Source of the DNA: Patescibacteria group bacterium
Lineage (GTDB): Bacteria > Patescibacteriota > UBA1384 > XYA2-FULL-43-10 > 1-14-0-10-43-13
Assembly (NCBI GenBank): GCA_041674765.1
Contig: JBAYVE010000002.1
Coordinates: 113,467-177,466 of the forward strand
Direction of reading: 5' to 3'
DNA: 64,000 nucleotides
Shown here: in pieces, positions 121-57,284 of the stretch
Layout of the letters: every line of letters begins with the position of its first letter
How positions within the stretch are numbered: the first letter of the stretch is position 1
Made by a program: the position numbers and the translations under genes
The notes under the pieces: generated by a model
What the model was told of the DNA's origin: nothing
Seen by the model: only the letters and a program-made list of their open reading frames with translations
The model's database searches: none

Positions 121-190
121 AGTAGAAGGTGGAATGTGGAACGTGGAATGGGGAATGTAGGGAATGGGGAGTGTGGAATGGGGAACGGGT
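121..190. repeat. G-rich degenerate tandem repeat (GGAATGK / GTGGAAYGGG units); second copy of this family lies at 57187-57284
   Basis: ggaatgtggaacgtggaatggggaatgtagggaatggggagtgtggaatggggaacggg lies directly after a stop codon. It contains four GGG tracts compatible with a G-quadruplex. Confidence 0.6.
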
Positions 191-19670: not shown

Positions 19671-19802
19671 AAGTAGTTGTATCTGAGATTGAAAGGGGGG
19701 GTATTTTATTGTATGATTAGCATGCAAAGAGACCGGTTAATTTTGGATTTTGCATACAACTATTATATAGATCCCGGTTTTGCCGGGAACGATAAGGAAC
19801 AA

Positions 19803-22742
19803 ATGTTTAAAGAAATTGATTCAAAGATGAATTTGCCCAAGGTCGAGGAAGAAATCCTTGATTTTTGGGATATGGGTAAAACATTTGAGAAATCTATTGA
19901 AAATCGCAAAGATGCCAAATTATATAGCTTCTATGACGGGCCGCCTTTTGCGACCGGAACTCCTCACTATGGCCACATTGTAGCCAGCACGATGAAGGAT
20001 GTTGTGCCAAGATATTGGACGATGAAAGGAAAAAGAGTAGACAGAGTTTGGGGCTGGGATTGCCATGGTTTGCCGATCGAAAATATTGCCGAAAAAGAGC
20101 TCGGATTTACGCATAAGAAAGAAATTCTGGATCTGGGGGTAGAAAAATTTAACGCAGTTTGCCGCTCAAAAGTTTTGGGCTATGTTTCCGAGTGGGAAAA
20201 AGTTATCCGGCGGCTTGGGCGCTGGGCCGATATGAAAAATGCCTACAAAACGATGGATCTCTCCTATATGGAGTCTGTCTGGTGGGTGTTTAAGCAGCTT
20301 TGGGACAAAGGGTTAATATATGAAGGATACCGTTCGATGCATATATGTCCCCGTTGCGAAACCACACTTTCGCAATCAGAAGTTAGTGAAGGCTATAAGA
20401 CAGTTAAGGATCTTTCTGCGATTGCCAAATTTGAAATGGTAGATGAGCGATCGACTTACTTTCTGGCTTGGACCACAACACCTTGGACATTGATTGGCAA
20501 TGTTGCATTGGCGGTTGGTCGGGATATCGATTATGTAAAAATCGAAACTCAAAATGAAGACGGGAAAATAGAAAACTATATCATGGCCAAAGATCGGTTG
20601 AAAGATGTAATGAAGGAGCGAGAATACCGGGTTGTAGATAATTATACTGGTCTTAATCTGGTTGGCCGGGCATATGAGCCACTTTTTGATTATTATATAA
20701 AAAAGCCAGGCCTTCTGAATAAGGAAAATGGCTGGAAAACAGTCACTGCAGACTTCGTGACTACTGAAGAGGGGACTGGTATTGTCCATATCGCTCCGGC
20801 TTTTGGTGAAGATGATATGGCTTTGGGCAAGGACCAAAACCTGCCGTTTATTCAACACGTGGGAATGGATGGTGTTATTAAACCTGAAGCCGGTGAATTT
20901 GCCGGTATGCACGTCAAAGATATTGAGGATAACCAAAAAACCGATATTGAAATTATAAAATACCTTGCGAAGAAAGAACTGCTTTTCTTCAAAGAAAAAT
21001 ACGAGCACTCTTATCCGCATTGTTGGCGCTGTGATACGCCGCTTCTAAATTATGCTACTTCCTCCTGGTTTGTCGCAGTTACCAAGGTAAAAGAGGATGC
21101 TTTGGAATTGGCCAAGGAGATCAATTGGTCGCCAAAACATATCAAGGAAGGTCGTTTCGGCAAGTGGCTTAAAGGCGCCAGAGATTGGTCTATTAGCCGC
21201 CAGCGCTTCTGGGCTTCAGTCATTCCGATTTGGAAATGCGATAAATGTGGAGAGATGAAGGTTTTCGGATCAGTCGCCGAATTGGAAGATCTAAGCGGTC
21301 AAACTATTTCGGATATTCATAAGGATACCGTTGATAAAATTATCTTTCCTTGTCAAAAGTGCGAGGGCCGGATGAAGAGGATTCCAGACGTGCTCGATAC
21401 CTGGTTTGATTCAGGTTCGATGCCTTATGCCCAGCTTCACTATCCTTTTGCAAATCAGGAAAAATTTGAGCAGACTTTCCCGGCTGATTTTATTGCTGAA
21501 GGACAAGACCAGACAAGAGCCTGGTTTTATTATTTGCATATTATCGCCACCGCAATTCAGAAAAAAGTGGCTTTCAAAAATGTCGAGGTCAACGGAATTG
21601 TTCTGGCGGAAGACGGCAAGAAGATGTCCAAGAAATTGCAAAATTATCCCGATCCTACGCTGATGTTTGACAAATATGGCGCTGATACAATGAGACTTTA
21701 TCTTCTGACTTCGCCTGTAATGCAAGCGGAAAATCTGAATTTCAAGGAAGCCGATATGGCCGAATTGTCCAGAGGCATCTTCCGGATGCTTTGGAACTCT
21801 TATTCCTTTTTCACTCTCTATGCGAATATAGATCGCTGGACACCAGCTCAAAGTCAAAAGTCAAAAGCCAAAAGCCTGAATTTGCTAGACCGTTGGATTA
21901 TTTCTGAATTAAATACCTTAATTCTTGAAGTGGATAAGTCCATGGAGAGCTATGAATTGATGAAGGCGTCCCGTCTTTTTCAGCCGTTTATCGACAACTT
22001 ATCAAACTGGTATATTCGCCGCTCGAGAAAGAGATTTTGGAAGTCAGAAAATGACGGAGACAAAGAAAATGCATACCAAACTCTCTGGACGGTGCTCGTT
22101 GAACTGTCGAAATTGATGGCGCCATTTACTCCATTTGTCGCAGAGGAAATATTCAAAAATCTGACAGGCAAGGAGTCTGTTCATCTGGAAAATTATCCTT
22201 CGGCTGATCAAGAAATGATTGATAATGATTTGAATTTGGCTATGGCGGAGACCAGGAAAGTGGTTGAACTCGGCCTATCTGCTAGAGCACAAGAAAGAAT
22301 TAAAGTCCGTCAACCGCTAAAGTCATTACAATATTCCGGGAGAAAATTAGAATCTGAGCTAGAGTCAATTATCGCGGAAGAAGTCAATGTTAAAGAGATT
22401 GTTCATATCGATGAAAGCAAGGATGCCCCGGGGCTAACGGTCGGCTTAGACTATAGCATTACAAAAGAGCTAAAACTCGAGGGATATGCCCGGGAAATCA
22501 TCAGAAATATTCAATCTTTACGTAAAGAAAGCGGATTCAACGTTGCCGATAGGATTTGCGTTTATTACAAGACTGATTCTGCGGAAATTGGAAAAACGTT
22601 TGAAAACTTCAGTAGTCTGATTGCTCATGAAGTTCTGGCAAATGAGATAATTGCTGGTTTGCCGGAAAAAATAGAAGGACGGCAGTTATTCAAAATTGAT
22701 GGCGAAGAAATATTGATTGGTTTAAACAGAGCTGCTAGATGA
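19803..22742 (+). CDS. ileS: isoleucyl-tRNA synthetase
   Basis: ATG at 19803 after AAGGAA. The conserved N-terminus begins MFKEIDSK…ILDFW. Carries the PHYGH and KMSKK motifs. The track ORF is extended 42 codons upstream with no RBS. Confidence 0.9.
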   Translation: MFKEIDSKMNLPKVEEEILDFWDMGKTFEKSIENRKDAKLYSFYDGPPFATGTPHYGHIVASTMKDVVPRYWTMKGKRVDRVWGWDCHGLPIENIAEKELGFTHKKEILDLGVEKFNAVCRSKVLGYVSEWEKVIRRLGRWADMKNAYKTMDLSYMESVWWVFKQLWDKGLIYEGYRSMHICPRCETTLSQSEVSEGYKTVKDLSAIAKFEMVDERSTYFLAWTTTPWTLIGNVALAVGRDIDYVKIETQNEDGKIENYIMAKDRLKDVMKEREYRVVDNYTGLNLVGRAYEPLFDYYIKKPGLLNKENGWKTVTADFVTTEEGTGIVHIAPAFGEDDMALGKDQNLPFIQHVGMDGVIKPEAGEFAGMHVKDIEDNQKTDIEIIKYLAKKELLFFKEKYEHSYPHCWRCDTPLLNYATSSWFVAVTKVKEDALELAKEINWSPKHIKEGRFGKWLKGARDWSISRQRFWASVIPIWKCDKCGEMKVFGSVAELEDLSGQTISDIHKDTVDKIIFPCQKCEGRMKRIPDVLDTWFDSGSMPYAQLHYPFANQEKFEQTFPADFIAEGQDQTRAWFYYLHIIATAIQKKVAFKNVEVNGIVLAEDGKKMSKKLQNYPDPTLMFDKYGADTMRLYLLTSPVMQAENLNFKEADMAELSRGIFRMLWNSYSFFTLYANIDRWTPAQSQKSKAKSLNLLDRWIISELNTLILEVDKSMESYELMKASRLFQPFIDNLSNWYIRRSRKRFWKSENDGDKENAYQTLWTVLVELSKLMAPFTPFVAEEIFKNLTGKESVHLENYPSADQEMIDNDLNLAMAETRKVVELGLSARAQERIKVRQPLKSLQYSGRKLESELESIIAEEVNVKEIVHIDESKDAPGLTVGLDYSITKELKLEGYAREIIRNIQSLRKESGFNVADRICVYYKTDSAEIGKTFENFSSLIAHEVLANEIIAGLPEKIEGRQLFKIDGEEILIGLNRAAR

Positions 22743-25101: not shown

Positions 25102-25140
25102 AAAATTCGAAATCCTAAATTCGAAATCCGAAACAAGTTC
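25102..25140. repeat. AAATTYGAAATCC repeat element (intergenic copy)
   Basis: aaaattcgaaatcctaaattcgaaatccgaaacaagttc. A near-identical copy sits in-frame inside dus at 34728-34765. Confidence 0.6.
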
Positions 25141-27899: not shown

Positions 27900-28910
27900 T
27901 TGGCAGCTTTCGGCGATCCTGCAAAGATATGGAAGGCTGAATCTGTAACTAATCAAGTTAAACTTGATGAAAAAATTATGGCTCTGGTTAGAGAGTGTAG
28001 GAAGAACTATGATCCAGACCGAGAGCTTCTGAAGTTGGCCAAATTGGATTTGGGATATGTTACGTTGTATGACAAAGAATATCCAGCACTGCTGAAAGAA
28101 GTGTATGATGGCCCGGTGGTTTTATACATTCGAGGCAATGCATCAGTTTTGAATACCCAGTCTCTTGCTGTTGTGGGGAGCAGAAAGTTCACTAACTATG
28201 GCAAGAGAATCGCATATTCATTGGCCAAAGAATGCGCCTTGGCCGGCTTGACCATCGTTTCTGGCCTCGCCCTGGGAATTGATGCTGAGGCTCATCAAGC
28301 GGCGCTTGATGTCGATGGCATCACCATTGGGGTCGTCGGGAACGGGCTCGACCGTATCTACCCTGTCAGCAACTACGATCTGGGTCGAAAGATCATTCAA
28401 AAAGGCGGAGCAATAATTTCTGAATTTCCACCGGGTACGCCACCTATGAAACATAATTTTCCGGCGAGAAATCGTATTATCGCAGGCCTCTCACAGGGTA
28501 CTTTGGTGATTGAGGCCGCCTCTCAGTCCGGTGCTCTGATCACCGCTATTCAAGCGTTGGAATATAATAGGGAAGTCTTTGCGATCCCCGGCAATATTGA
28601 TTCCCCGACTTCAGAGGGTACAAATGCCCTGATCCAAAAAGGGGCAAAATTGATTACAAAAGCAGAAGATGTTCTGGTTGAATTAAATGTCGAAGTTAAA
28701 AACCACCAAGCTAAAGCCAAAGCAATTTTGCCCGATACCGAAGAGGAAAGCCAGATAGTTGAGACACTAAAAAGAGGTGAAATGCTCGCCGATGAAATTA
28801 TTAGGGTCACCGGCTTAAATGTGATCCTTGTAAACTCGACATTGACAATGATGGAGATGAAGGGAATAATAACAAATCTGGGCGGGGGAAGATATTGTTT
28901 GATCAAATAA
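27900..28910 (+). CDS. dprA: DNA processing protein DprA (Smf)
   Basis: Rossmann-fold DprA core (VVGSRKFTNYGKR…GLALGIDAEAHQ…FAIPGNIDS). The first canonical start is the TTG at 27900, but conserved N-terminal sequence continues in-frame upstream (see finding). Confidence 0.85.
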   Translation: MAAFGDPAKIWKAESVTNQVKLDEKIMALVRECRKNYDPDRELLKLAKLDLGYVTLYDKEYPALLKEVYDGPVVLYIRGNASVLNTQSLAVVGSRKFTNYGKRIAYSLAKECALAGLTIVSGLALGIDAEAHQAALDVDGITIGVVGNGLDRIYPVSNYDLGRKIIQKGGAIISEFPPGTPPMKHNFPARNRIIAGLSQGTLVIEAASQSGALITAIQALEYNREVFAIPGNIDSPTSEGTNALIQKGAKLITKAEDVLVELNVEVKNHQAKAKAILPDTEEESQIVETLKRGEMLADEIIRVTGLNVILVNSTLTMMEMKGIITNLGGGRYCLIK

Positions 28911-29098
28911 CTAAAGTTTGTAAAGAATAATATTAGTTAGGATTTTTCGTTAGGTTTTCTTTATAGCTTTGAACTATATAAACTTTATCAACCTTCAACT
29001 TTATAAACTTTATAAACTCTCTTATTTGAATAAAATCCTCTCTTCTGTTAATTTAAGTAATAGTTTCAAAAACCAAAACAAAATAATTTAAGGAATAA

Positions 29099-31201
29099 AT
29101 GAATTTAGTAATCGTTGAGTCGCCGGCAAAGGCAAAAACAATTGAGAAATTTCTTGGCAAGGATTATAAGGTTCTTGCTTCTTTTGGCCACGTCCGTGAC
29201 TTGCCGCAGAAGTCCCTTGGTATAAATGTTGAAAAAAATTATGCTCCTGAATATTCGATTCTACCAAAGGCGAAGAAAACTATCTCAGATCTCAAGGGCT
29301 ATGCGGATAAGGCGGATATAATCTATCTGGCAACCGACTTAGACCGTGAAGGGGAGGCAATCTCCTGGCATCTGGCAGAAGCGTTGAAAATCAAGGATAA
29401 AGGTAGATCAAAAAGAATTGTTTTTCATGAGATCACCAAATCTGCTCTGGAAAAAGCGGTCCAAAATCCTCGGGACCTTGATATGAATTTGGTTGATGCG
29501 CAGCAAGCCAGAAGAGTTTTAGACAGGCTCGTCGGTTATAAACTTTCTCCCTTTCTCTGGAAAAAGGTAAAAGCCGGATTGTCAGCCGGACGCGTCCAAT
29601 CCGTGGCAGTCAGATTAGTCGTTGAGAAAGAACGTGAAATCATAGCTTTCAAACCGAGGGAATTCTGGGTTTTGGGGGTAGATTTATCTAAACAAAATAA
29701 CAAAAAAGTATTCTCGGCATACCTTGTTGAAATTGACGGTAAAGGTATGACAAAGTATGACATTGGTGATAAAAAAGCTGCTGATCTGATTGAAAAAGAT
29801 CTAAAAGATGCGTCTTACAAAGTTCTTGATGTCAAGGAAAAGGAAAGCATTCGCAAACCCTCGATTCCTTTCACAACATCCGCTCTTCAGATCGAAGCTT
29901 CGAGGAAGCTTGGTTTTTCGCCAAAGCAGACGATGATGCTGGCACAACATCTTTATGAGGCAGGTCATATTACCTATATGCGTACTGACTCAACTAACTT
30001 ATCGGACGAGGCGTTATCTGCTATTCAAAAAGTTATCATCGGTGAATTCGGCCAGAATTATTTGGAGTCCAGAAAATTTAAGACTAAGGCCAAACATGCA
30101 CAAGAGGCTCACGAGGCTATCCGTCCTTCGCATTTTGAAAATAAAAAGGTAACAGACGATGCGCGCGGTCAAAGACTTTATGATCTAATCTGGCGCCGAA
30201 CGGTAGCCTCCCAAATGAAAGATGCAATTTTCACAGTCATCAATGCTAGAATTAGTGCAAAGACAGCTAAAGAATTCATTTTCTTAACCAGCGGCGAGAA
30301 AATGAAATTTGACGGCTTTATGAAAGTTTATGTTGAGAGTTCAGAGGAAGAGGAGATAAAGGAGAGCACAATTCCGGCGCTTGCAGCGGGTGAAATTCTT
30401 GACTTCCACGAACTAATTAAAGATCAGAAATTTACAGAACCGCCAAAACGCTACTCTGAGGCTATGCTTGTCAAAAAGTTAGAAGGTCTCGGAATTGGCC
30501 GTCCATCGACTTATGCGCCGACCTTGGAGACTATTCAGCATAGAGGATATGTAATTTTAGAGGAGAAGAGGTTTAAGCCCCAGGAAATCGGCATGATCGT
30601 AACTGATCTATTGGTTGCCAACTTCCCCCAAATCGTAGATTACAAATTTACTGCAGAGATGGAAGATGAACTTGATGATATCGCGGACGGAAAACGTGAA
30701 TGGGTCTCGGTCATCGACGAATTTTATAAACCTTTTGAGAAAAATTTAGAGGTGAAGAGCAAAGAGATCAATAAAAAAGATATCATCAAAGATGAAATTT
30801 TGGAAGAAAAATGTCCCGAATGTGGTGAGCATCTGGTTATCAAACTGGGCCGTTATGGCAAATTTATTGCCTGTTCCGGATATCCGAAATGTAAATATTC
30901 GAGGCCTCTGGAGATTAGCGCTGAGGAAAAAGTGGAGGCAGCGGGCGAGGTTTGTGAAAAATGCGGGGGAAAGATGATTTTGAAAGAGGGTCGTTTTGGT
31001 AAATTCCTAGCCTGCGAAAATTATCCTAAATGCAAGAACACAAAACCGATTTCAAGCAAGACTGGTATTAAATGTCCCAAATGTGATAGTGGTGAGCTGG
31101 TTGAGAAGAAAACCAAAAGAAGAAGAACTTTTTGGGGTTGCTCGCGTTACCCGGAGTGCGATTATGCAACTTGGGAAGACCCGGCCAAAAAACCCGAATG
31201 A
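29099..31201 (+). CDS. topA: DNA topoisomerase I with C-terminal zinc ribbons
   Basis: Toprim N-terminus (MNLVIVESPAKAKTIEKFLG). There are three C-terminal C4 zinc fingers. Length is 700 aa. Confidence 0.9.
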   Translation: MNLVIVESPAKAKTIEKFLGKDYKVLASFGHVRDLPQKSLGINVEKNYAPEYSILPKAKKTISDLKGYADKADIIYLATDLDREGEAISWHLAEALKIKDKGRSKRIVFHEITKSALEKAVQNPRDLDMNLVDAQQARRVLDRLVGYKLSPFLWKKVKAGLSAGRVQSVAVRLVVEKEREIIAFKPREFWVLGVDLSKQNNKKVFSAYLVEIDGKGMTKYDIGDKKAADLIEKDLKDASYKVLDVKEKESIRKPSIPFTTSALQIEASRKLGFSPKQTMMLAQHLYEAGHITYMRTDSTNLSDEALSAIQKVIIGEFGQNYLESRKFKTKAKHAQEAHEAIRPSHFENKKVTDDARGQRLYDLIWRRTVASQMKDAIFTVINARISAKTAKEFIFLTSGEKMKFDGFMKVYVESSEEEEIKESTIPALAAGEILDFHELIKDQKFTEPPKRYSEAMLVKKLEGLGIGRPSTYAPTLETIQHRGYVILEEKRFKPQEIGMIVTDLLVANFPQIVDYKFTAEMEDELDDIADGKREWVSVIDEFYKPFEKNLEVKSKEINKKDIIKDEILEEKCPECGEHLVIKLGRYGKFIACSGYPKCKYSRPLEISAEEKVEAAGEVCEKCGGKMILKEGRFGKFLACENYPKCKNTKPISSKTGIKCPKCDSGELVEKKTKRRRTFWGCSRYPECDYATWEDPAKKPE

Positions 31202-31445: not shown

Positions 31446-31526
31446 TGCCAATGATTTAATTTCTAGATGACAAAATCTGAGTTTAAAAATTGAATAAAAA
31501 TTAAGAATTAAAAATTAATAATTTTA

Positions 31527-32126
31527 ATGTTGCCAACAAGTATCCAAAATCTAATCGATGAGTTCTCAAAACTTCCGGGAGTAGGGCCGAAAAGTGCGGC
31601 AAGACTGACCTTTTATCTGCTTACCAAGCCAAAAGGCGATATAGAGCAGCTTGGCAGTTCTGTTTTAAATTTGGCTCGGAATTTGAAATATTGTAAAGAG
31701 TGTTTTAATATTTGCGAAAACGATCTTTGTCAGATTTGTGCCGATGATCGTCGGAACCACCAGATTGTGATTGTTGTAGAAGAGCCTCTTGATGTTTTGG
31801 CGTTGGAAAAATCGGGCGGAATAGACGGAATTTACCATGTTCTTGGAGGCGTGATTTCTCCGATTAATGGCATCGGTCCGGATGATCTACGTATCAGTCA
31901 GCTCCTCGACCGGCTCGACGAAAGTGAAGATTTGGAAGTAATTTTGGCCACCAATCCAAACCTAGAAGGTGAAGCGACCGCAACTTATGTTAAAAACAAA
32001 ATTGCAGCATTGGGCAAAAATATCAAAATCACCAGAATCGCCCGGGGATTGCCTATCGGTGGTGATCTCGAATATGCCGATCAGGTCACTCTGAAACGAT
32101 CTCTCGAAGGAAGACGCGAATACTAG
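31527..32126 (+). CDS. recR: recombination protein RecR
   Basis: Has a helix-hairpin-helix (PGVGPKSAARL), a C4 zinc finger (CKEC…CQIC) and a Toprim domain. Confidence 0.9.
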   Translation: MLPTSIQNLIDEFSKLPGVGPKSAARLTFYLLTKPKGDIEQLGSSVLNLARNLKYCKECFNICENDLCQICADDRRNHQIVIVVEEPLDVLALEKSGGIDGIYHVLGGVISPINGIGPDDLRISQLLDRLDESEDLEVILATNPNLEGEATATYVKNKIAALGKNIKITRIARGLPIGGDLEYADQVTLKRSLEGRREY

Positions 32127-32357
32127 ATCCACCTTCGGTGGAATTTTTAAGTCCTAATTTCTAATTTTTAATCAAATTATAATTAAAAAATTAAAAATTC
32201 AATAAAAATTAAGAACTAAAAATTAAGAAATTATTTCGCATCAGACAAGCAAAAGCAATGCGCTAAATAGTTGGGGATAAGTTTACTTGACATTACCGAA
32301 AAATCACCGCTAAAATCGTTTAGTTAGCTTAAAATTAAAAACAAAAAAAGAGGTCAA

Positions 32358-32724: not shown

Positions 32725-34074
32725 ATGAAATTTTTTAACACTTTGAGTTCGAAAATCGAAGAATTTAAACCGATGAATCCGAGCGAGGTTACGATGTACA
32801 CTTGCGGACCTACAGTCTATGATTCGGTCCATATTGGCAATCTGCGTGCCTACGTTTTTGTTGACCTTCTAAAAAGAGCCCTGATTGCCGAAGGCTACGG
32901 AGTGAAACACGTAATGAATATCACCGATGTTGATGATAAGACCATAAGGAAATCGGATGGCAAAAGGGATAAGATTAAATCTTTGACGAAGAAATATGAG
33001 GATAAATTTTGGCAAGATTTCGATGAATCGAACAATATCCGACCCGATGTTGTAACGCGGGCGACTGAGTATGTGGAGAAAATGATTGTTTTCATCGAGG
33101 AATTGATTAAAAAAGGTTTTGCCTACAAAGCTACTGACGGCTCGGTATATTTTTCGATTGCTAAATTCACGGATTACGGTAAATTGGCAAAGTTGGATTT
33201 GTCAGAGCTAAAATCTGGTGCCAGAGTGGCCCAGGATGATTATACAAAAGAGAATCCTGCCGACTTTGTCCTTTGGAAAGCCTGGGACGAAAAAGACGGC
33301 GAAATCTTCTGGGATTCTTCTTTGGGTAAGGGCCGTCCTGGCTGGCATGTCGAATGCTCTGTTATGTCTACTGATGTCCTAGGGCCAACTATCGATATCC
33401 ATGCCGGTGGCATTGACCTTGTTTTTCCCCATCATGAAAATGAGATTGCACAATCAGAAGCCAAATCAGGTCAGAAGTTTGTCAACTTTTGGGTGCATAA
33501 TGAGCATCTACTGGTTAGCGGACAGAAGATGTCCAAGAGTTTGTCTAATTTTTACACGCTGGATGATATCAGGGAAAAAGGATTTTCAGCACTTGATTTC
33601 CGCTACTATGCTCTTGGCGCTCATTACCGTTCCAAGATGAACTACACTTGGGAAGGAATTGAGGGGGCTAAAAATGCGAGAGAGAGGCTGATGCGTTTGG
33701 TTGCGGGAATGAAAAGTCATAACGGCAAGGTTATTCAAAAGTATCTATCACAATTTAATGAAAAAATCTTTGATGATTTGAATGTTCCGGAGGCATTGGC
33801 GATTCTTTGGGAACTTGTTCGAGATGCTGAAATCCAACCTGAGAATAAACTTACGACAATTCTGGAGATGGACAAAGTTCTAGGATTGAACCTAGGTAAA
33901 AAACAGGAACCAGAAGTAATTCCGGCCGAGATCATTAAATTGGCGGATGAGCGTAAACAAGCTAGAAATGATAAAAAATTTGGCAGATCAGATGAGATAC
34001 GGGAAGAAATGCTAGAAAAGGGTTGGAGAGTAGAGGACTTGGCTAATAATAATTATAAGATAGTTAAAGCATAA
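32725..34074 (+). CDS. cysS: cysteinyl-tRNA synthetase
   Basis: AAGGAG RBS. Carries the CGPTVYDSVHIGN (HIGH) and KMSKSLSN motifs. Confidence 0.9.
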   Translation: MKFFNTLSSKIEEFKPMNPSEVTMYTCGPTVYDSVHIGNLRAYVFVDLLKRALIAEGYGVKHVMNITDVDDKTIRKSDGKRDKIKSLTKKYEDKFWQDFDESNNIRPDVVTRATEYVEKMIVFIEELIKKGFAYKATDGSVYFSIAKFTDYGKLAKLDLSELKSGARVAQDDYTKENPADFVLWKAWDEKDGEIFWDSSLGKGRPGWHVECSVMSTDVLGPTIDIHAGGIDLVFPHHENEIAQSEAKSGQKFVNFWVHNEHLLVSGQKMSKSLSNFYTLDDIREKGFSALDFRYYALGAHYRSKMNYTWEGIEGAKNARERLMRLVAGMKSHNGKVIQKYLSQFNEKIFDDLNVPEALAILWELVRDAEIQPENKLTTILEMDKVLGLNLGKKQEPEVIPAEIIKLADERKQARNDKKFGRSDEIREEMLEKGWRVEDLANNNYKIVKA

Positions 34075-34176
34075 AGCTTAAAGCGAAAAGCATAAAGCCT
34101 AAAGCCGAAAGCGAAAAGCTTAAAGCATAAAGCAGAAAGCATAAAGCATAAAGCAGAAAGCATAAAGCATAAAGCG
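34064..34176. repeat. heptamer/nonamer tandem array (NNAAAGC)n, left arm of an inverted repeat flanking the four-helix-bundle gene
   Basis: ttaaagcataaagcttaaagcgaaaagcataaagcctaaagccgaaagc…cataaagcataaagcg. The array starts inside the cysS 3' end. A partner array with reversed polarity lies at 34541-34569 (ggctttcggctttgagctttttgcttta). Confidence 0.6.
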
Positions 34177-34182
34177 ATTGTG

Positions 34183-34536
34183 ATGAATACGATAAAAAAA
34201 TTTGAGGATCTCATTGTTTGGCAAAAATCCAGGTTATTGGTAACTGACTGTTATTTCACTTTTGAGTTTATCAAGGATTTTTCATTTAAAGATCAATTAT
34301 GCAGGGCTGCCGTTTCTATTATGAACAATATTGCTGAGGGTTATGAAAGAAAAGGAGACAAGGAATTCGGACGGTTTCTTTATATCGCAAAAGGCTCTTC
34401 AGGTGAATTTAGATCCATGCTTTATGCGGCTTCAGATCTAAAGTATATTACAAAAGACCAATTTTTAAATTTTTGTGGCCGATCCGAAGAGATCTCTCGG
34501 CTTTTAGTTGGTTTAATAAAAAGAATGAATACTTAA
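34183..34536 (+). CDS. four-helix-bundle protein (23S rRNA intervening-sequence-type protein family)
   Basis: About 117 aa. The IKKFEDLIVWQKSRLL…IAEGYER…GSSGEF pattern is typical of this family. Confidence 0.75.
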   Translation: MNTIKKFEDLIVWQKSRLLVTDCYFTFEFIKDFSFKDQLCRAAVSIMNNIAEGYERKGDKEFGRFLYIAKGSSGEFRSMLYAASDLKYITKDQFLNFCGRSEEISRLLVGLIKRMNT

Positions 34537-34576
34537 TGGAGGCTTTCGGCTTTGAGCTTTTTGCTTTAAACTTATT

Positions 34577-35626
34577 ATGAATTTTTGGAAAGATGTTGAT
34601 AGACCAATCAAAGTTCTCTCACCGATGGCCGGATATACCGACTCGGCTTTTCGTGTTCTGTGCCGCGAATTTGGCGCTGATGTGGTGATCACGGAGCTGA
34701 TTTCTGCAGATGCTATAGCCTACGGCAAATTTGAAATCCAAAATTTGAAATCCGAAACAAATTCTAATTCTAAAATTCAAAAACTAAATCAAACAATAGT
34801 TACAGGAAAAAATACTTCTACGGCGGAGATGTTATCTTTTTGCGAAGAAGAACGGCCTTTGGTGGTCCAATTATTTGGAAAATATCCAGCAAAATTTGGC
34901 ATAGCGGCTAAATGGGTTACTGAAAATTTAAAGCCAGATGGGATCGATATCAATATGGGTTGTCCCGCTAGAAAAGTGGTCAATTCTGATCATGGCGCAG
35001 CATTGCTAAAAAATCCTGATTTAGCTATCGAAATTGTAAAAGCAGTGAAGGAAAATACCGATTTGCCGGTCTCTGTCAAAACAAGACTTGGCTGGGACAA
35101 TGACGACCAAATTCTAGAGTTCGCGCCGAAACTCGCCAGCGCGGGGATTGACGCTTTGATTGTTCATGGGCGAACCTATAAAGATGGGTTCAAAGGGAAG
35201 GCTAGGTGGGAAAATATTTATAAGGTGAAAGCGTTGCTTCCGAATTTAACTGTAGTTGGCAACGGAGACATAGATTCAATTTTCAGTGTCATGCCCGTGA
35301 AGGCGGACCAGGAAAATAATGAATTGGATCCCCGGGTCAGGCCCGAGGATGACACTATTGGGCTGGACGGCTATGCCATCGGCCGAGCAACTTTTGGCAA
35401 GCCATGGATATTTTCGAAAGCTGAAGTTTCGAAAGACGAGTTGAAGGTGATAATTTTGCGGCATGCTAAACTTGTCTATCGAACAAAGGGTGATTATGGC
35501 ATGGTTGAATTTAGAAAACATCTCCTGGCTTATCTAAAAGATTTTCCAGGGGCTAAAGAGCTGAGGAAGAAAGCAGTTGCGATTAAAACACTTGATGAGG
35601 TTAAAGGAATTCTGGAATTGGTTTAA
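34577..35626 (+). CDS. dus: tRNA-dihydrouridine synthase with an in-frame repeat-derived insertion
   Basis: Flavin-binding TIM-barrel motifs are present (LSPMAGYTDSAFR…VQLFG…DINMGCPARKV…KTRLGWD). The segment YGKFEIQNLKSETNSNSKIQ is encoded by a copy of the AAATTYGAAATCC repeat. Confidence 0.85.
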   Translation: MNFWKDVDRPIKVLSPMAGYTDSAFRVLCREFGADVVITELISADAIAYGKFEIQNLKSETNSNSKIQKLNQTIVTGKNTSTAEMLSFCEEERPLVVQLFGKYPAKFGIAAKWVTENLKPDGIDINMGCPARKVVNSDHGAALLKNPDLAIEIVKAVKENTDLPVSVKTRLGWDNDDQILEFAPKLASAGIDALIVHGRTYKDGFKGKARWENIYKVKALLPNLTVVGNGDIDSIFSVMPVKADQENNELDPRVRPEDDTIGLDGYAIGRATFGKPWIFSKAEVSKDELKVIILRHAKLVYRTKGDYGMVEFRKHLLAYLKDFPGAKELRKKAVAIKTLDEVKGILELV

Positions 35627-39949: not shown

Positions 39950-40975
39950 ATGGATCTAAGAGAACGACTCTCACAACTCAAAGCGATTCTTCAAATCGAT
40001 GCAAAGAAGACTGAAATTCATAAACTCCAGGCGGAAATGAATCAGCCCGGATTTTGGCTCGATGACAAAACCGCCGGTCAAGTCAGCCAGAGACTAAAAA
40101 ATCTACTGCAGGAAGTGGAGCCTTTTGATGACTTATATGATTTAGCTCAAATTTCCTCTCTTCAGGAACTTGAAGTCTTAAGGCCTGAAATCGAAAAATT
40201 GGAGATCCTAGCTCTGCTCTCGGAAAAATATGACCAAAACAATGCCATAATCAATTTCTATGCCGGCGCGGGTGGGGTAGATGCGCAGGACTGGACCGAA
40301 ATGCTCCTTCGGATGTATCTTAGGTTTGCGGAAGAGAATGGTTTCAAAAGTAACATCATCGATGAAACCAAGGGGACGGAGGCCGGTATAAAGAGTGCGA
40401 CTGTTGAAATTACCGGACCTTATGCCTACGGTAAATTGAGAGGGGAATCTGGCGTTCATCGGCTGGTCCGCCAATCACCATTTAACGCAAAATCCTTGCG
40501 TCAGACTTCATTTGCGCTAGTCCAAATTTTCCCCGAAGTAGAATCTTCAGCAGAAGTTAATATTGATCAGAAGGATCTTCGAATTGATGTGTATCGTGCA
40601 GGCGGACATGGCGGGCAGTCTGTCAATACGACCGATTCAGCTGTTAGAATTACTCATATTCCGACTGGGATTGTTGCTACCTGTCAAAACGAAAGAAGTC
40701 AGTTGCAGAATAAAGAGATGGCCATGAAGATACTACGTTCCAGATTGGCTAAATTGATGCTAGAGCAACACAAAGAGAGAATAGAGGAGTTAAAAGGGGA
40801 TTACTCCGCCCCTGAATGGGGAAACCAAATTAGATCTTATGTCTTGCATCCATATAAAATGGTTAAGGACCATCGCACCGGGTATGAATCAAAGAATCCA
40901 GATGCAGTTCTAAATGGAGAAATAAGCGGGTTTATTGAAGCAGAGCTTAAACAAGCAGTAAGTAGTAAGCAGTAA
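39950..40975 (+). CDS. prfB: peptide chain release factor 2 (uninterrupted ORF, no programmed frameshift)
   Basis: Carries the SPF (QSPFNAK) and GGQ (GGHGGQSVN) motifs. The 3' end (SSKQ*) is encoded by an AGTAAGC heptamer array at 40955-40980. Confidence 0.85.
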   Translation: MDLRERLSQLKAILQIDAKKTEIHKLQAEMNQPGFWLDDKTAGQVSQRLKNLLQEVEPFDDLYDLAQISSLQELEVLRPEIEKLEILALLSEKYDQNNAIINFYAGAGGVDAQDWTEMLLRMYLRFAEENGFKSNIIDETKGTEAGIKSATVEITGPYAYGKLRGESGVHRLVRQSPFNAKSLRQTSFALVQIFPEVESSAEVNIDQKDLRIDVYRAGGHGGQSVNTTDSAVRITHIPTGIVATCQNERSQLQNKEMAMKILRSRLAKLMLEQHKERIEELKGDYSAPEWGNQIRSYVLHPYKMVKDHRTGYESKNPDAVLNGEISGFIEAELKQAVSSKQ

Positions 40976-41039
40976 GCAGTATCGGCCAGAGGCCGACCGG
41001 CCTTTAATCATAGCAATAAGTAATTGCATCGGAGGGGAT

Positions 41040-41858: not shown

Positions 41859-42164
41859 ATGGTTGATTTGGGAAAGATGAAGGATCTCTACGCATTACAG
41901 AAAAAGGCTAGACAGATCCAAAAAGAATTAAAAAACGTCGAAGTTGAAGCATCTAGTAACGATGGCTGGGTTACTGTAGTTTTCAATGGAGAACAGCATC
42001 TTACTGAAATTAATTTGGCAGAAGAAGCGCTCCGACCTGAAAACAAGAGAGAACTCGAAAAAGATCTGAAAAATTCAATCTCCCAGGCTATTTCAAGGGC
42101 TCAAGCAGTCGCAGCTGAAAAGATGAAAGATATTGCAGGGGGAATGGGAATACCGGGACTTTAA
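41859..42164 (+). CDS. ybaB: nucleoid-associated protein YbaB/EbfC
   Basis: 101 aa with the typical YbaB pattern (DLGKMKDLYALQKKARQIQKEL…GGMGIPGL). The last codons lie inside the 69-bp repeat. Confidence 0.85.
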   Translation: MVDLGKMKDLYALQKKARQIQKELKNVEVEASSNDGWVTVVFNGEQHLTEINLAEEALRPENKRELEKDLKNSISQAISRAQAVAAEKMKDIAGGMGIPGL

Positions 42165-42316
42165 GACCCAGCTACCCTAAAGTCCCCATACGAATTACGA
42201 ATGTACGAATCTTACGAATGCTGAAGGAAACTATTTGTTGGATTTAGTACCGGGACTTTAAGACCCAGCTACCCTAAAGTCCCCATACGAATTACGAATG
42301 TACGAATCTTACGAAT
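42151..42316. repeat. two identical 69-bp direct repeats (42151-42219 and 42248-42316), each a 9-bp-stem hairpin plus (TACGAAT)x4
   Basis: taccGGGACTTTAagacccagctacccTAAAGTCCCcatacgaattacgaatgtacgaatcttacgaat is present twice, separated by 28 bp. Confidence 0.8.
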
Positions 42317-43110: not shown

Positions 43111-43524
43111 CCCTATGGACTATCATTTTTAGGATGAAAAAGGGCTATTCTAAATAGTGTCATCCTCGGGACCAATGGTGTTCTTGGAAATGGTGTCCGG
43201 GGATCCAATACCATATTATTGTTCGAACAAAGTGAGAAGTGATTCTTAGAACGTCATCCTGAACCGACGCAGTCGTCCCGAGCAGAGTCGAGGGATCTGT
43301 ATCTTGTTTCAGGATCTAATTCTTTTATTTGAGGACAAAGGGGCTCTTTCCGACCTGCCCGCAGATGCTAAAGCATCAGCTTTTGCAGGCGGGGGTCGCC
43401 CCTCTATCCTCAAACTCCAACTCCCTACACGGTATAGAGGAATTCTTTTTCTTCATAAAAAATCACTGGCTACGCCGTGGTCCTATGGGCTATCATTTTT
43501 TATGACGCAAAAGGACTATTGTAG
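43111..43524. repeat. ~45-bp direct repeats (43111-43157 and 43482-43524) bracketing two GTCATCC-type elements (43159-43212 and 43253-43316)
   Basis: ccctatggactatcatttttaggatgaaaaagggctattctaaatag is matched by cctatgggctatcattttttatgacgcaaaaggactattgtag. Between them lie gtgtcatcctcggga…tccggggatccaata and gtcatcctgaaccgacgcagtcgtcccgagcag. Confidence 0.5.
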
Positions 43525-44423: not shown

Positions 44424-44566
44424 CATGACATAGATAGCAAATAAATTGATAGAGGATTGAGATAAAGTATAGAATAGGGCTGCCAAAAGGCGGCTCTATT
44501 TTATACTTTACGAACTTTACAGACTTTAAGAACTTTATAAACTTTACGAACTTCTTAAACTGTCTG

Positions 44567-44596
44567 TTGCACTATTTTTCACTTATTTGTTATAAT
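44567..44596 (+). promoter_or_regulatory. sigma70-like promoter of the giant gene (TTGCAC-N18-TATAAT)
   Basis: ttgcac at 44567-44572 and tataat at 44591-44596, 25 nt upstream of a GAGGGG RBS. Confidence 0.5.
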
Positions 44597-44621: not shown

Positions 44622-47600
44622 ATGAACCCGGACCAGTTTAAAAATCTTGATCGATTAGATCAGGAACTTGCACGAATTCAAAGAAGTACGAAGACATCGT
44701 GGCGGTTTTTTGCTGCACCACATGACTGGCTCCGAATGAAATTTCGCTGGTACTATAAGTGGCACCTAAACCCTTGGGCTCAAATGGTGCACAAATTCAG
44801 TTTTGGTCTTGTTACTGCAGGGATTTTGCTTATTGTGCTGACTCAATTCGGTCTGTTTGACTTTAATCAATCCACAAAAGCAGCAGCTGTTTCTGTTGAT
44901 ACCTCTACGACTGGGGAAGCGACCAATAATAGCTCTCAAAGAAAAACCTTTACCGATACTGTTAATAATACTCAATGGGCTTTTTATAATAATGGAGAAG
45001 CGATAGAATATTCGTACTCTTCTGATGGAAGTTCGTGGGTAAGCGCTGGAACATTGGCGCATAATACTCAATATTTTAGTACTAATTACAAAGCCATATC
45101 CGGCGCTGGTTACGTTCTCTTGGCTACGGAATGCAATACTTATGATGTTTGTATTTACCAAGGTTCATTGACTGGAACTAGCATTTCCTTTGGCAGTGCG
45201 GCAACTGTTTTTGACGGCGTATCTTTATCAAATAATTATTCTAGACCCACAGTTACTTATGATGGCGACAACTATATTTGGGTTGGAGCGGTAAAGGATT
45301 TCGGTAATTCTTCTCCCGATCACCTTCAAGCTCAGACTAAAAAATCATCTTCTGCTAACAATATCTCCGGCTGGGGATCAGTTCTGACAGCAGGTAATAA
45401 GATGAAAATACTCACCAATGTAATTATCCTCAATCAGTCCGGTTCAAGTATGTATCTTGTTGCCTCAAATGGTTCTAGTGTTACCGGATTTAAATATACA
45501 ACCGAAGTTCCGGTGTGGACGAGTGCCAATGATGGTGGGGAGGCTGCCTGGTTTGAGTTTGGGGATGGGGGATTCAGTGCGGCGGTTAATGCGGTAGCTA
45601 TATCCGGAACTGATGTTTATGTCGGTGGCAGTTTTATCAAAATTGATTCGTTGACAACGAACTTCATTGCTAAATGGAATGGCTCTTCGTGGTCTACTCT
45701 CGGAAGTGGTGTCGGCGGCCCAGTTTATGCCCTAGAGGTTGTTGGGACGGATCTTTATGTCGGCGGAAGTTTCAATAGCGCCGGAGCGGTTGCTGTCAAC
45801 AATCTTGCCAAATTTAATACACTTACTTCTGAATGGTCAAGTGTTGGTGGCGGCGTAGTTGGTGTGGAAGAAAATAGTGCCATTGTATATTCTTTAATCG
45901 AATCAAATTCCAGCCTCTATATCGGAGGAAGCTTTGTTTTAGCAGGTGAAACGAGCGCAAAATCAATTGCTAAATGGGATATTGCGGCTGAGTCATGGAG
46001 CGCTCTAGGGAATGGCCTTATTGATATGAATGATAGCACCGCAATTGTACGCAGTATTGCGATTGATGGTTCAAGTGTTTATGCAGGTGGGATGTTCGTT
46101 CAGGCTGGCGAGGTAGCCGCCAATGTAGTGGCGGTCTGGGATGGTAATTCATGGTCCAGTATGGGGTCTCCTCAAATGGATATGGCGATGACGGTCGCAA
46201 TTTATAATTCGGAAGTGTATATCGGTGGTCTGGGCTGGAGTGAGGGCAATGCAGCAAAATGGAATGGTTCTGCGTGGGAATATATTAATTTTACGAGCGA
46301 AGTCAGAACCCTTGTAGTCAATGATGGCAAATTGTATGCGGGTGGAGGTTTTCAGGCTCTTGGCGAGGATTCTTTTAAGTTTATCGCTGTTTATAATGGA
46401 GTTTCTTGGAGTGGGCTCGAGCAAGATCTAAACAATACTGTGTCTCAGCTAACTTTTTCAGGTAACGATTTATATACCGTGGGATCCTATACGGCTGCAG
46501 GCACTGTTGCAGCGAAGTATTTTGCAAAATATAGTGATGGACAATGGCAGGCCCAAGGGAGTGTTGGGGGGATAGACGGTGATGTAAATACAATCGCAGT
46601 TGATGACAGTAACAATATTTATATTGGGGGCACTTTCAGAACAGCTGGCGGTATTTCTGCTAACAGAATTGCGAAATATGACGGAGATACCTGGAGCGCT
46701 CTTGGGACAGGGACTTCTGGCGAAGTTAAGGTAATAAAAGTGGTTGATGATATTGTTTACGTAGGCGGATCCTTTGCAAGTGCGGGAGGGGAAGCTACCT
46801 CAAACATCGCGTCATGGAATCCTGCAACTAGTACATGGAGTGCTTTGGGCAGCGGCACCGATAGCACGGTTTATACACTTGCTGATTTTGGGAGTTCTCT
46901 ATACGCAGGAGGTAATTTCTCTACGGCTGGAGGAGGAGCTGCTAGCAAAGTGGCAACATGGAATATGACTGCAGGAACTTGGAGTGCTCTTGGTAGTGGC
47001 GTTAACGACTTAGTTCTTTCAGTCGCCACCGATCCAGAAGGGAATTTATATGTTGGCGGAAGCTTTACTTCGCCTGGCTCGAAAATTGCTAAGTGGAATG
47101 GCTTGGAGTGGTCGGCATTAGGAACTGGCGTCAATAATTTGGTTCGATCATTGATATTTGTTGATAGTAAACTATATGTGAGTGGACATTTTACAACGGC
47201 TGGCGGCGTATCGTCAAACTTGGTGGCAATGTGGGATGGGGAAAACTGGAATAGTATGGGTCTGGCTGGGAGCGTTGTATACACGATCGCTGCTGACGCT
47301 TCAAATAATATTTATGCTAGTGTTCCGACTAATGGAAACCGCAGTGCTCAAGTAAAATGGAATGGCGAAGTTTGGGATAACTATAGTAACGGTTTTGCTG
47401 GTTCTGGAGTTTATTCGTCTTTATTTATTGGCGATAGATTGTACATCGGCGGTTCAACAACAGTTTTTTCTTCTTATGGAATGAGCGGAACTTCCCTCGG
47501 CTACCTTGAGAATGCTATCGCAAGGAGTACAGATTCAGGGTCAGAAGTGTCTGCAGTAACCGACTCTCTCGGTAATATTCATCTGGCATATTCTGCTTGG

Positions 47601-55589: not shown

Positions 55590-55645
55590 GCAAGCGAATA
55601 AGCTAGTAAGCTGATAAGCTTGTAAGTGATAAGAATATACCACCT

Positions 55646-55871: not shown

Positions 55872-57206
55872 ATGTCTTTTAAATTAATCAAAAAATTAGA
55901 TAACGGTACCCGAATCGGGGAACTGGCGACGCCTCATGGTAAGATTGAGACGCCCTTTTTCATGCCGGTTGGAACTGTCGGCAGCGTGAAATCGGTTTCG
56001 CCGAATGAATTAAAAGAGCTAGGTTCAGAGATCATACTTAGTAATACTTATCATTTGTACTTGCGACCAGGGGAGAAACTGATCAAGGATTTTGGCGGAC
56101 TCCACAAATTTATGAGATGGGATCGGCCAATCCTTACAGACTCTGGGGGATACCAAGTTTTTTCTTTGGCAAGAGGGGACAACCATAATAAGAATGTCAT
56201 TTATGGTTCTGTCATTCCCGCGGAGGCGGGAATCCAGAAGACCAAGGAATTGGATCCCCGGGTCACCGTTCGACCCCGAGCGACTCACGGTCGAGGGGAG
56301 CCCGAGGATGACACCATTATTAGGGACAGCAAAAGGGGTCTTGTCAAAATTACCGAGGAAGGTGTGGAATTTAAATCATTTCTCGATGGCAGCAAACATT
56401 TTTTCACTCCTGAGAAAGTTATCCAAATTCAGCTTGATCTGGGCGTCGATATTCTGATGCCGCTAGATGTTTGTCCGAGCGGCAAAGCAACTCGAAAAGA
56501 AGTGGAAGAATCGGTTCGATTAACTATTTTATGGGCAAAAAGAGCAAAAGAATATTTTGATTGCAAGATACAAGAAACAAGAGACAATAATCAAAAAAAT
56601 AACAATACAACAATAAAACAATATGACAATCGACCTCTTCTTCATGGTATCGTTCAGGGTGGTTTATATGAAGATTTAAGAAGAGAGTGCGCCAAAGAAC
56701 TTATCAAATTGGACTTCGATGGCTATTCGGTCGGCGGATTGGCTGTTGATCATGAAACAAGGGATATGTGGGAGACGGTAAAACTGATGGGGGAGATATT
56801 GCCTCAGGATAAACAAAGGTATCTGATGGGTGTCGGTACACCGGATGATATTATAAAAGCTACAGAATTAGGCATGGATATGTTTGATTGTGTCTTGCCG
56901 ACACGTTTGGCGAGACACGGAAATGTGTATGTCAGAGCAGAAAGCCAAAAACAAAAAGCTAAAAATATTAACCTATATGAACTCATTAACCTCCTCAAAT
57001 CCGAATATCGAACCGATAGGGGAGTGATAGATGAAAATTGTGGCTGTGAAGCTTGCCAGAAGGGAACGGGTTTCTCAAAGGCCTACATTTCCCATCTAAT
57101 TCGTTCAAATGAGATTTTAGGGCTCAGACTTGCGACGTTGCACAATCTCTATCAATATCTGGAGCTTATGAGAGAACTCGGTTGGAGAGTGGAACGGGGA
57201 AAGTAG
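55872..57206 (+). CDS. tgt: queuine tRNA-ribosyltransferase carrying an in-frame repeat-element insertion
   Basis: Conserved Tgt blocks are present (FMPVGTVGSVK, PILTDSGGYQVFSL, YLMGVGTPDD, CxCxxC zinc site). An extra ~45-aa segment (…NVIYGSVIPAEAGIQKTKELDPRVTVRPRATHGRGEPEDDTII…) is encoded by a GTCATCC-type element. Confidence 0.85.
   Translation: MSFKLIKKLDNGTRIGELATPHGKIETPFFMPVGTVGSVKSVSPNELKELGSEIILSNTYHLYLRPGEKLIKDFGGLHKFMRWDRPILTDSGGYQVFSLARGDNHNKNVIYGSVIPAEAGIQKTKELDPRVTVRPRATHGRGEPEDDTIIRDSKRGLVKITEEGVEFKSFLDGSKHFFTPEKVIQIQLDLGVDILMPLDVCPSGKATRKEVEESVRLTILWAKRAKEYFDCKIQETRDNNQKNNNTTIKQYDNRPLLHGIVQGGLYEDLRRECAKELIKLDFDGYSVGGLAVDHETRDMWETVKLMGEILPQDKQRYLMGVGTPDDIIKATELGMDMFDCVLPTRLARHGNVYVRAESQKQKAKNINLYELINLLKSEYRTDRGVIDENCGCEACQKGTGFSKAYISHLIRSNEILGLRLATLHNLYQYLELMRELGWRVERGK
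56211..56316. repeat. GTCATCC-type palindromic element inserted in-frame inside tgt
   Basis: gtcattcccgcggaggcgggaatcc…ggaattggatccccgggtcacc…gggagcccgaggatgacacc. It includes an 8-bp perfect hairpin (ATTCCCGCggagGCGGGAAT). Confidence 0.6.
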
Positions 57207-57284
57207 AATGTAGAGAGTGGAATGTAGAATGGGGAGTGTAGAGCGTAGAATGTAGAACGTAGAATGGGGGGTGTGGAACGGGGC
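57187..57284. repeat. G-rich GTAGAATG/GGAATG tandem repeat (second copy of the 121-190 family)
   Basis: gagtggaacggggaaagtagaatgtagagagtggaatgtagaatggggagtgtagagcgtagaatgtagaacgtagaatggggggtgtggaacgggg. It starts within the last codons of tgt. Confidence 0.55.

Follow-up and report, generated by a model that had tools for sequence, protein, structure and literature searches.

A four-helix-bundle protein gene between inverted heptamer arrays in the cysS-dus spacer of a Patescibacteria genome, a candidate insertable cassette of the rRNA intervening-sequence type

We suggest that the segment separating cysS from dus in a Patescibacteria group bacterium (assembly GCA_041674765.1, contig JBAYVE010000002.1, positions 113,467 to 177,466 of the forward strand, a stretch of 64,000 nucleotides that we call the window) is, on balance, probably an insertable cassette of the intervening sequence (IVS) type known from 23S rRNA genes, in which a gene of the PF05635 four-helix-bundle family and two arrays of short tandem units, inverted relative to each other, travel as one. 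Homologues of the gene from many phyla have the same cassette anatomy around them, as does the ORF of a genuine 23S rRNA IVS.

The most conspicuous part of the element is its left arm (Table 1), which is the top-scoring array in the window according to Tandem Repeats Finder (period 7, 15.9 copies, score 145). All 16 of its AAAGC cores are exact and follow one another at a spacing of 7 nt throughout (34066...34171), and the 2-nt spacers between them, in order AT TT GA AT CT CG GA TT AT AG AT AT AG AT AT, are the sole variable part. The array begins before cysS has ended: unit 1 overlaps the last cysS codons, and the stop codon TAA (34072-34074) falls within units 1-2. At the other end, the last seven, ORF-proximal units (34129-34175; ORF, open reading frame) make up a 21-nt higher-order repeat of three units, and the length of the arm is therefore probably the outcome of a recent local slippage expansion; it is the largest upstream array among 63 scored loci, in which 4-5 units are typical. 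The right arm mirrors units of the left one as their reverse complement, and 3 nt separate its end from the ATG of dus. Two inverted repeats join the arms, one of 33 nt and 85% complementarity (34074-34106 with 34541-34573) and one of 26 nt and 88% (34087-34112 with 34542-34567). From 100 shuffles the expectation for the pattern AAAGCNNAAAGCNNAAAGC is 0; the window matches it 18 times, and all but two of these matches lie at the cassette.

Since all units share one core, the right arm can pair with the left in 13 registers, each with 22-25 of 30 positions matched. The arms are paired in both the minimum free energy and the centroid folds of 34040-34600, their duplex has an energy of -40.4 kcal/mol as compared with -17.7 +/- 3.9 when the right arm is shuffled, and of 303 other segments of the window not one equals the cassette's own arm in pairing. 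A first-pass annotation, made from the letters of this DNA and a list of its open reading frames, had described a heptamer array of some 110 bp starting in the cysS stop region, a reverse-complement array on the right and a stem that the two could form around the gene, and had placed this element between cysS and dus rather than in rRNA. Each of these points is borne out, the last by the Pfam identification of both flanking genes and by the lack of any rRNA or tRNA gene within the window.

Table 1. The cassette and its two neighbouring genes, in window coordinates
Feature	Coordinates	Strand	Description
cysS (cysteine-tRNA ligase)	32725..34074	+	Pfam tRNA-synt_1e, E=6.5e-111; co-oriented with the cassette
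Left (5') arm	34065..34175	+	16 tandem heptamers with exact AAAGC core
Left-arm segment best matching the right arm	34074..34112	+	units with CC/CG spacers mirroring ggctttcggcttt
Spacer gattgtg, 7 nt	34176..34182	+	between the last left-arm unit and the ATG; read from the sequence
Four-helix-bundle ORF, 117 aa, Avd-like	34183..34536	+	PF05635/TIGR02436
Right (3') arm	34541..34573	+	ggctttcggctttgagctttttgcttta (34541-34568, 4 GCTTT units) plus aaactt
dus (tRNA dihydrouridine synthase)	34577..35626	+	Pfam Dus, E=1.1e-70; co-oriented with the cassette

The enclosed gene is indeed of the family first noticed in rRNA intervening sequences, as had been proposed. Its product matches PF05635 over profile positions 1-105 of 106 (E=1.2e-32, 112.7 bits, cut-off 33.8) and TIGR02436 with 105 bits (cut-off 24), and is identical to the NCBI entry 'MAG: four helix bundle protein [Patescibacteria group bacterium]'. 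An AlphaFold2 monomer model, with a predicted local distance difference test (pLDDT) score of 94.5, has four helices at 11-26, 33-55, 59-85 and 91-116. The protein XCC0516 (PDB 2gsc) is matched by sequence (E=3.5e-9, 32% identity) and, in a Foldseek search with the model, by structure (TM score 0.88, root-mean-square deviation 1.2); BT_0352 (2rld) follows with a TM score of 0.83, and both, which are structural-genomics entries of the 'S23 ribosomal protein' family, share Pfam/TIGRFAM family and fold with the cassette protein. The motif Q38-x2-R41-x3-S45-x3-N49-x2-E52, whose R, S, N and E do not vary across 30 homologues, is the family motif GxxRxxxSxxxNxxE (Zhang et al. 2013; Lin et al. 2006; PMC3936711), with Q instead of G in its first position. 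XCC0516 is pentameric according to PMC4990558, which cites Lin 2006, and by analogy the cassette protein probably forms a pentameric, Avd-like ring. Scans with Pfam, TIGRFAM/NCBIfam and PADLOC models found no transposase, integrase or nuclease domain in the protein, and the PADLOC defence-system models gave zero matches. Purifying selection acts on it (the ratio of nonsynonymous to synonymous change, pN/pS, is 0.10-0.19 in four pairs), and the ORF is therefore functional. The arrays that flank the genes of these four pairs differ in unit number and spacers, and hence the arms turn over faster than the ORF.

Avd itself is a pentamer that binds nucleic acid, and its four-helix-bundle fold is homologous to that of the cassette protein (4dwl, TM score 0.77), a diversity-generating retroelement (DGR) ribonucleoprotein, 8ub7, being matched as well. 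As PF05635 is moreover the Pfam family most often met in DGR neighbourhoods (PMC10053308), the cassette might be taken for the remnant of a DGR whose protein acts as Avd. Identity to Avd is, however, only 15-16%, as opposed to 32% to XCC0516; the heptamer arms are not template/variable repeats; and Avd works within a reverse-transcriptase complex, whereas no reverse transcriptase (RVT) domain, other DGR gene or cas gene occurs among the ten neighbour genes that we scanned with Pfam between 25.8 and 41.8 kb (an Mfd-like helicase, dprA, topA, recR, cysS, dus, a release factor and unknowns). We accordingly give a DGR remnant a negligible probability. The arrays were also considered as a CRISPR array and this identity was rejected: CRISPR loci have repeats of 23-50 nt and unique spacers, whereas the units here are 7 nt long and lack such spacers, and no cas gene is present among the ten neighbours.

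The flanking arrays recur around nearly all close homologues of the gene. We compiled a set of 80 loci (51-63% identity) from Patescibacteria, Bacteroidota, Spirochaetota, Bdellovibrionota, Gammaproteobacteria, Nitrospirota, Omnitrophota and others, and almost all of them have (NN or NNNN)AAAGT units upstream and ACTTT(NN or NNNN) units downstream. Arrays of at least three AAAGT cores number 44 in the 100 nt just upstream of the ORF and ACTTT arrays number 39 in the 100 nt just downstream, while in every other 100-nt bin within +/-1.5 kb there are 0-3 arrays. Units follow one another at either of two preferred spacings, 7 and 9 nt, the arms mostly consist of 4-5 units, and the median gaps are 14 nt between the upstream arm and the ATG and 9 nt between the stop codon and the downstream arm. 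With spacers included, the two arms of a locus are more complementary to each other (17.5) than arms taken from different loci (10.9; Wilcoxon p=4e-10) or a control segment 1 kb off (7.7), and for the window cassette the own-arm score is 20.5 versus 6-9.5 with the arms of other loci. Array lengths vary between related loci, and so may the core: all 16+4 units of the window have AAAGC where most related loci have AAAGT, a change that is mirrored on both arms. In orientation, too, the loci agree for the most part. The cassette gene is co-oriented with its upstream neighbour at 73 of 77 loci and with its downstream neighbour at 63 of 72 (raw counts, uncorrected for gene-strand bias), and the purine fraction is 0.62 in the upstream 60 nt as against 0.44 in the downstream 60 nt, a polarity that holds in 70 of 77 loci. 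At two loci, L001 and L052, complete ORF-less hairpins (left arm, loop, right arm) flank the PF05635 ORF on both sides, with the ORF-adjacent array of opposite polarity; these look like nested or composite arrangements.

It might be argued that intergenic repeats of 7-9 nt, made by slippage, simply happen to flank a small gene. Short-period arrays do lie at other gene ends in the window (125-185, 25103-25133, 31483-31523, 32142-32233, 40953-40981, 55599-55633 and 57185-57280), and when metagenomes were scanned for (AAAGCNN)x4, 76 of the 80 loci found had no adjacent PF05635 gene; such an ORF stood directly downstream on the sense strand in the other 4 (L118, L123, L126 and L149), one of which was too diverged for tblastn, and one further locus, L140, was an ORF-less AAAGC/GCTTT hairpin. 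AAAGC arms alone are therefore not diagnostic of the gene. Coincidence nevertheless sits badly with the preference of the window's arms for each other, in the comparison both with the arms of other loci and with the 303 window segments, with the sharp positional peak of arrays around homologues across phyla, and with the recurrence of the layout in complete genomes of cultured bacteria, where finished plasmids also make an assembly artefact unlikely. We regard its probability as very slight, and both coincidence and a DGR remnant are effectively excluded.

Distant homologues extend the picture to plasmids and to rRNA. A tblastn search of finished plasmids gave 28 records, of which 14 were inspected. 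At 28-45% identity the arrangement is retained, with units of other kinds: GGGGAAA-type and TCAGGAG-type in Nostoc, GGAGATAA in Picosynechococcus, where the cassette lies between cas10 and cmr3, AAGGTTN in Riemerella, GGTGACA in Anabaena 90, adjoining cas4, GGGAARA in Geminocystis and GGAGGGC in Gemmatirosa. In all of these the array upstream on the coding strand is purine-rich. The arrays of the Nostoc 7120 gamma copy are ambiguous, and an ISL3 transposase gene adjoins it.

In plasmid AZO_p2 of Azospirillum lipoferum 4B, the PF05635 ORF is found inside a full-length 23S rRNA (Rfam LSU, 2692.8 bits), between the arms cagagga cggatga cagagga cggagga and ccgtcct ctgtctt ctgtcat ccgtctt. This IVS is inserted after ...ACCGAAGCUGCGGA and before GUGGUAGCGGAGCG, a site that we take to be helix 45 of 23S rRNA. 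In the IVS of Coxiella, the S23p ORF has been reported to be preceded by GACAGAT heptamers, three in tandem, and the termini to form a 28-bp stem, within which RNase III cuts, removing an AG-rich Shine-Dalgarno (SD) region located there (PMC4990558). The Azospirillum arms and the Coxiella report together mean that the likeness to rRNA intervening sequences, which the first-pass annotation had asserted, now holds on direct evidence. Both kinds of element have a PF05635 ORF between complementary, stem-forming termini, the 5' arm of both is built of heptamers in tandem (GACAGAT x3 in Coxiella, GAGGACG-type units in Azospirillum, 16 AAAGC units here), the heptamer count varies among Coxiella strains (PMC4990558) as it does among the related loci here, and a selfish or mobile origin has been proposed for both. 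They differ in that the host of the present element is a spacer between two protein-coding genes, rather than helix 25 or 45 of 23S rRNA, that its left arm is far longer, and that cutting by RNase III is known for rRNA copies only. Moreover, the Coxiella ORF is reported to be decaying and probably untranslated (PMC4990558), in contrast to the purifying selection in the cassette subfamily.

Cassettes with PF05635 genes also occur within cas operons of cyanobacterial plasmids (L097, L224 and L228), at the cas10-cmr3 and cas6-cas4 junctions and, in one case, beside cas4. Surveys list PF05635 as cas- or CRISPR-associated (PMC3936711, PMC10910872), and insertions of this kind may account for the listing without any functional link.

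The comparison of filled and empty sites bears on mobility. In the window, topA, recR, a small gene, cysS and dus form a co-directional string with the cassette in the cysS-dus spacer. Relatives with CysS 64-68% identical keep the order topA-recR-small ORF-cysS-dus and lack the cassette gene, and the 132-704 nt that separate cysS from dus in them contain neither a called gene nor AAAGC arrays and are unrelated in sequence; no known RNA family of Rfam was found either in these spacers or in the window. No relative has the gene at this place without its repeats, and homologues elsewhere nearly always have them. A sharper comparison is offered by the P0079 cassette of Zambryskibacteria, which lies between ftsE and ftsX. 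In genomes with FtsX 77-89% identical, the empty ftsE-ftsX site measures 4, 8 or 16 nt, as against 442 nt for the filled one, which consists of left arm, ORF and right arm; it follows that the arms appear and disappear together with the ORF. Different small inserts occupy this junction in two further relatives, one of the inserts being an ORF-less TACGAAT/ATTCGTA hairpin (L233), and operon junctions are therefore a repeated target of such hairpin elements. The idea that the element is a mobile cassette, also put forward in the first-pass annotation, is thus largely supported: the empty relatives, the insertion at ftsE-ftsX as a unit and the distribution over many phyla speak for it, whereas neither a mechanism of movement nor a target-site duplication nor a second copy in the window was found.

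How might such a cassette be tolerated between co-directional genes? We propose that it would have neither promoter nor terminator of its own and would be transcribed by read-through from cysS; no terminator-like site was found on its + strand. In the transcript, the purine-rich 5' array would pair with the pyrimidine-rich 3' array in a helix of approximately 26-33 bp, which could slide between registers because its units repeat. RNase III may then cut the arm helix, as is known from the rRNA copies, and release the cassette RNA, which would keep an insertion tolerable both in operon junctions and in rRNA hairpin loops. Most speculatively, the protein ring may recognise the tandem units, the typical 4-5 units per arm matching its five subunits, and this binding might control the expression of the cassette itself or promote its maintenance or spread.

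A number of results weigh against the cassette reading or against the RNA-level mechanism that we attach to it. At the cysS-dus locus, the closest relative is only 68% identical in CysS, and the relatives are therefore too distant for a gain here to be distinguished from a loss elsewhere. Six samples all carry an identical P0079 cassette at a single fixed site, with no sign of recent movement; the same six samples led us to reject hypervariability of arm length within a population. Target-site duplications were not detected, the longest shared direct word outside the arms being 4.53 within loci versus 4.38 across loci (49 loci), with the proviso that cassette boundaries are fuzzy and short duplications could be missed; a candidate duplication, ATGTAAT at L089, lies within the cross-locus background and looks like chance. 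Viral or phage copies had no match in INPHARED or IMG/VR, and the 64-kb window contains neither a second PF05635 gene nor a second AAAGC arm pair. It also has no RNase III signature, which is uninformative on the rest of the genome. No SD-like sequence is visible in the 7 nt before the ORF (34176-34182), and a weak promoter-like site at 34024-34053 (the scan found 4 sites, with 2.6 expected) means that read-through is not the sole option for transcription. Not all distant homologues conform to the layout: the Calothrix copy has no visible arrays, and that of Pseudanabaena galeata pPg_01 (L228, between cas6 and cas4) has (AAAAGCT)x14 upstream and (AAAAGCC)x9 downstream, direct and not inverted, the only clear exception to the inverted layout and one that has the AAAGC core in common with the window. 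The whole 561-nt fold of 34040-34600 is no more stable than + strand shuffles (z=-0.29); the folding signal at the cassette is the pairing of the arms, not the stability of the whole region. Finally, mismatches between arms have no G·U bias (38 sense-compatible versus 50 antisense-compatible, p=0.24), and there is therefore no support from this quarter for selection on a sense-strand RNA helix.

This last result leads to the main rival, in which the element acts at the level of DNA. The inverted arrays would form a hairpin or cruciform, or serve as terminal inverted repeats, and would be sites of recombination or insertion; intramolecular templated repair would keep them complementary, the protein would assist as a nucleic-acid-binding accessory, and pairing in RNA would be a by-product. 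Apart from the missing G·U excess, such a mechanism is favoured by the replacement of the core in concert on both arms, by the entry of arms and ORF into spacers of 4-16 nt as one unit, and by the ORF-less inverted arrays (1533-1610 and 28915-29015 in the window, L233 at ftsE-ftsX, L140), which resemble derivatives of the type of MITEs (miniature transposable elements with inverted repeats). On the other hand, the 117-aa protein has no transposase, integrase or nuclease domain, neither a target-site duplication nor multi-copy identical elements were seen, and the placement of the purine-rich arm upstream in 70 of 77 loci, together with 95% co-orientation with the upstream gene, points to a constraint at the level of the transcript. 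The processing of rRNA versions by RNase III has, besides, been shown by experiment (PMC4990558). We think a DNA-level explanation unlikely, if one to be taken seriously.

A further alternative, which overlaps in part with the cassette reading, is that the arrays mainly control translation of the ORF as a cis-regulatory module, in which the upstream units bind the pentamer or the ribosome and the downstream arm sequesters them. This would fit the closeness of the arms to the ORF and their usual 4-5 units, the upkeep of purine/pyrimidine polarity even though unit sequences differ completely between lineages, the often SD-like character of the purine-rich upstream units in other lineages (GGAG, GAGG, AAGG), and the AG-rich SD region in the Coxiella stem that RNase III removes (PMC4990558). 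The AAAGC and AAAGT units, however, are not SD-like, in a genome that uses GGAGG-type sites, e.g., upstream of the ORF at 57391, and regulation in cis leaves unexplained both the joint appearance and disappearance of gene and arms at operon junctions and the existence of ORF-less arrays. We find it improbable as a full account of the element.

The window also holds a variety of other arrays and hairpins. Two ORF-less hairpins, at 1533-1610 and 28915-29015, consist of (AAAGTNN..)n on the left and (ACTTTNN..)n on the right around loops of about 25 and 40 nt, and their units are the canonical PF05635-flanking units of other genomes. Both are intergenic, the first after the ORF at 301-1527 and the second between dprA (27900-28910) and topA (29099-31201), and folding them yields paired arms, at modest energies (z -1.4 and -1.5). 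The gene recR (31527-32126) is preceded by a (TAAAAAT)n array at 31483-31523 and followed, at 32142-32233, by the inverted pair aatttttaag..aatttctaatttttaat and attaaaaaattaaaaatt; in the relatives L081 and L087, an (aatttct)n...(agaaatt)n hairpin is found at the same place downstream of recR, a position that is kept even as the sequence drifts. Directly after + strand stop codons, at 125-185 and 57185-57280, come two arrays, long and purine-rich, of GGAATGN/GTAGAAN heptamers (8-13 units). No complementary arm was seen near either of them, and the former is followed by a terminator-like hairpin (aaatgccgctctctaacgggcggcattttt). A 69-nt direct repeat (42151-42219 and 42248-42316, 28 nt apart) has copies ending in (TACGAAT)-type units, and an ORF-less TACGAAT/ATTCGTA hairpin, already mentioned above, fills the ftsE-ftsX junction in an unrelated Zambryskibacteria genome (L233 1039-1174).

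Heptamer arrays are present within ORFs as well, at 34727-34788 (dus, AAATTTGAAATCC units), 21850-21875 (AAAGTCA/AAAGCCA, in the ORF at 19677-22742) and 56936-56964 (AGCAAAA, in the ORF at 55872-57206). That of dus encodes the low-complexity KFEIQNLKSETNSNSKIQKLNQ, which precedes the segment that scores best against Pfam Dus (residues 78-343), and the three suggest that arrays have been absorbed into coding regions. Among GC-rich structures, an 83-nt hairpin at 43330-43412 (ttgaggacaaaggggctc...gcccctctatcctcaa) shares 86% identity with the beginning of the spacer between cysS and dus in L083 (4348-4434), a relative with just 64% identity in CysS; the hairpin stays below threshold for every Rfam family, and it could be another mobile hairpin or a small RNA. 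The cysS-dus spacers of L081 and L087 have in common a different GC-rich segment (gaccccatgg...ccatgggg). A strong GC-rich hairpin lies at 44470-44503, the fold of 44470-44585 reaching -33.6 kcal/mol (z=-7.3), and is followed, up to 44561, by right-arm-type units (ACTTTNNNN)x6, for which no left arm is obvious; an ORF of 3164 aa (44622-54116) lies just downstream. Lastly, a tandem array with a period of 19 nt (GGGAATGACAAAGAAATAG, about 6 copies) and higher-order periods of 38 and 57 nt occupies 59931-60056.

Much of what is assembled here is already known. Intervening sequences with S23p genes have been on record since the early 1990s, and Ralph and McClelland reportedly described, in 1993, a Leptospira IVS with an S23p/PF05635 ORF (as cited in PMC4990558). 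The PF05635 family, whose proteins have been annotated in a great many genomes, its scattered cas-association (PMC3936711; PMC10910872) and the Coxiella IVS heptamers are likewise part of the literature. Tandem intergenic heptamers have been described independently in Xanthomonas (GGGAATC, about 70 convergent pairs) and Nostoc (GGGGAYT; PMC4692102) and in Beggiatoaceae (TAACTGA; PMC4679880). Like the arms of the cassette, these arrays lie near start or stop codons, sometimes as convergent pairs, have lineage-specific units, and have stops in all frames of their forward units, as ATAAAGC has here; they differ in that there is mostly no gene between them. Neither paper mentions PF05635 or S23p ('S23' and 'intervening' occur 0 times, as does 'four helix' in the Beggiatoaceae paper). 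We also would make the distinction between the cassette and MITEs, the palindromes known as repetitive extragenic palindromic (REP) sequences and bacterial interspersed mosaic elements (BIMEs), and integron cassettes. These are comparable as small intergenic insertions with inverted repeats, ORF-less versions and a presence at operon junctions, but for the present element neither a partner transposase or integrase nor a target-site duplication nor a multi-copy family of identical elements was identified, and its arms are arrays of tandem 7/9-nt units rather than unique terminal sequence. Our search, which left most subscription journals outside its reach, found no paper in which inverted arms of tandem units are described, outside rRNA, as a general companion of PF05635 genes.

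Taken at its widest, the proposal would be that PF05635 genes and their inverted arms constitute a widespread, unrecognised class of self-contained cassettes that have no transposase or integrase, insert in operon junctions, cas operons and rRNA loops, are neutralised by RNase III and encode a pentamer that reads 4-5 units, and that intergenic heptamer arrays, such as those of Xanthomonas (GGGAATC) and Nostoc and the ORF-less hairpins of the window, are derivatives without the ORF or targets of it. We offer this generalisation tentatively, as a possibility of rather low probability. It would nevertheless supply a candidate origin for the unexplained intergenic heptamer arrays. The cassette reading also puts a standing question about the family into a form that can be tested, through the cutting of mRNA arms by RNase III and the binding of five tandem units by the pentamer. 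For annotation, what would otherwise be entered as a 'hypothetical four helix bundle protein' plus a 'tandem repeat' becomes one recognisable element, whose gene carries its heptamer-array stem with it wherever it is sited, in operon junctions, cas operons, plasmids or rRNA.

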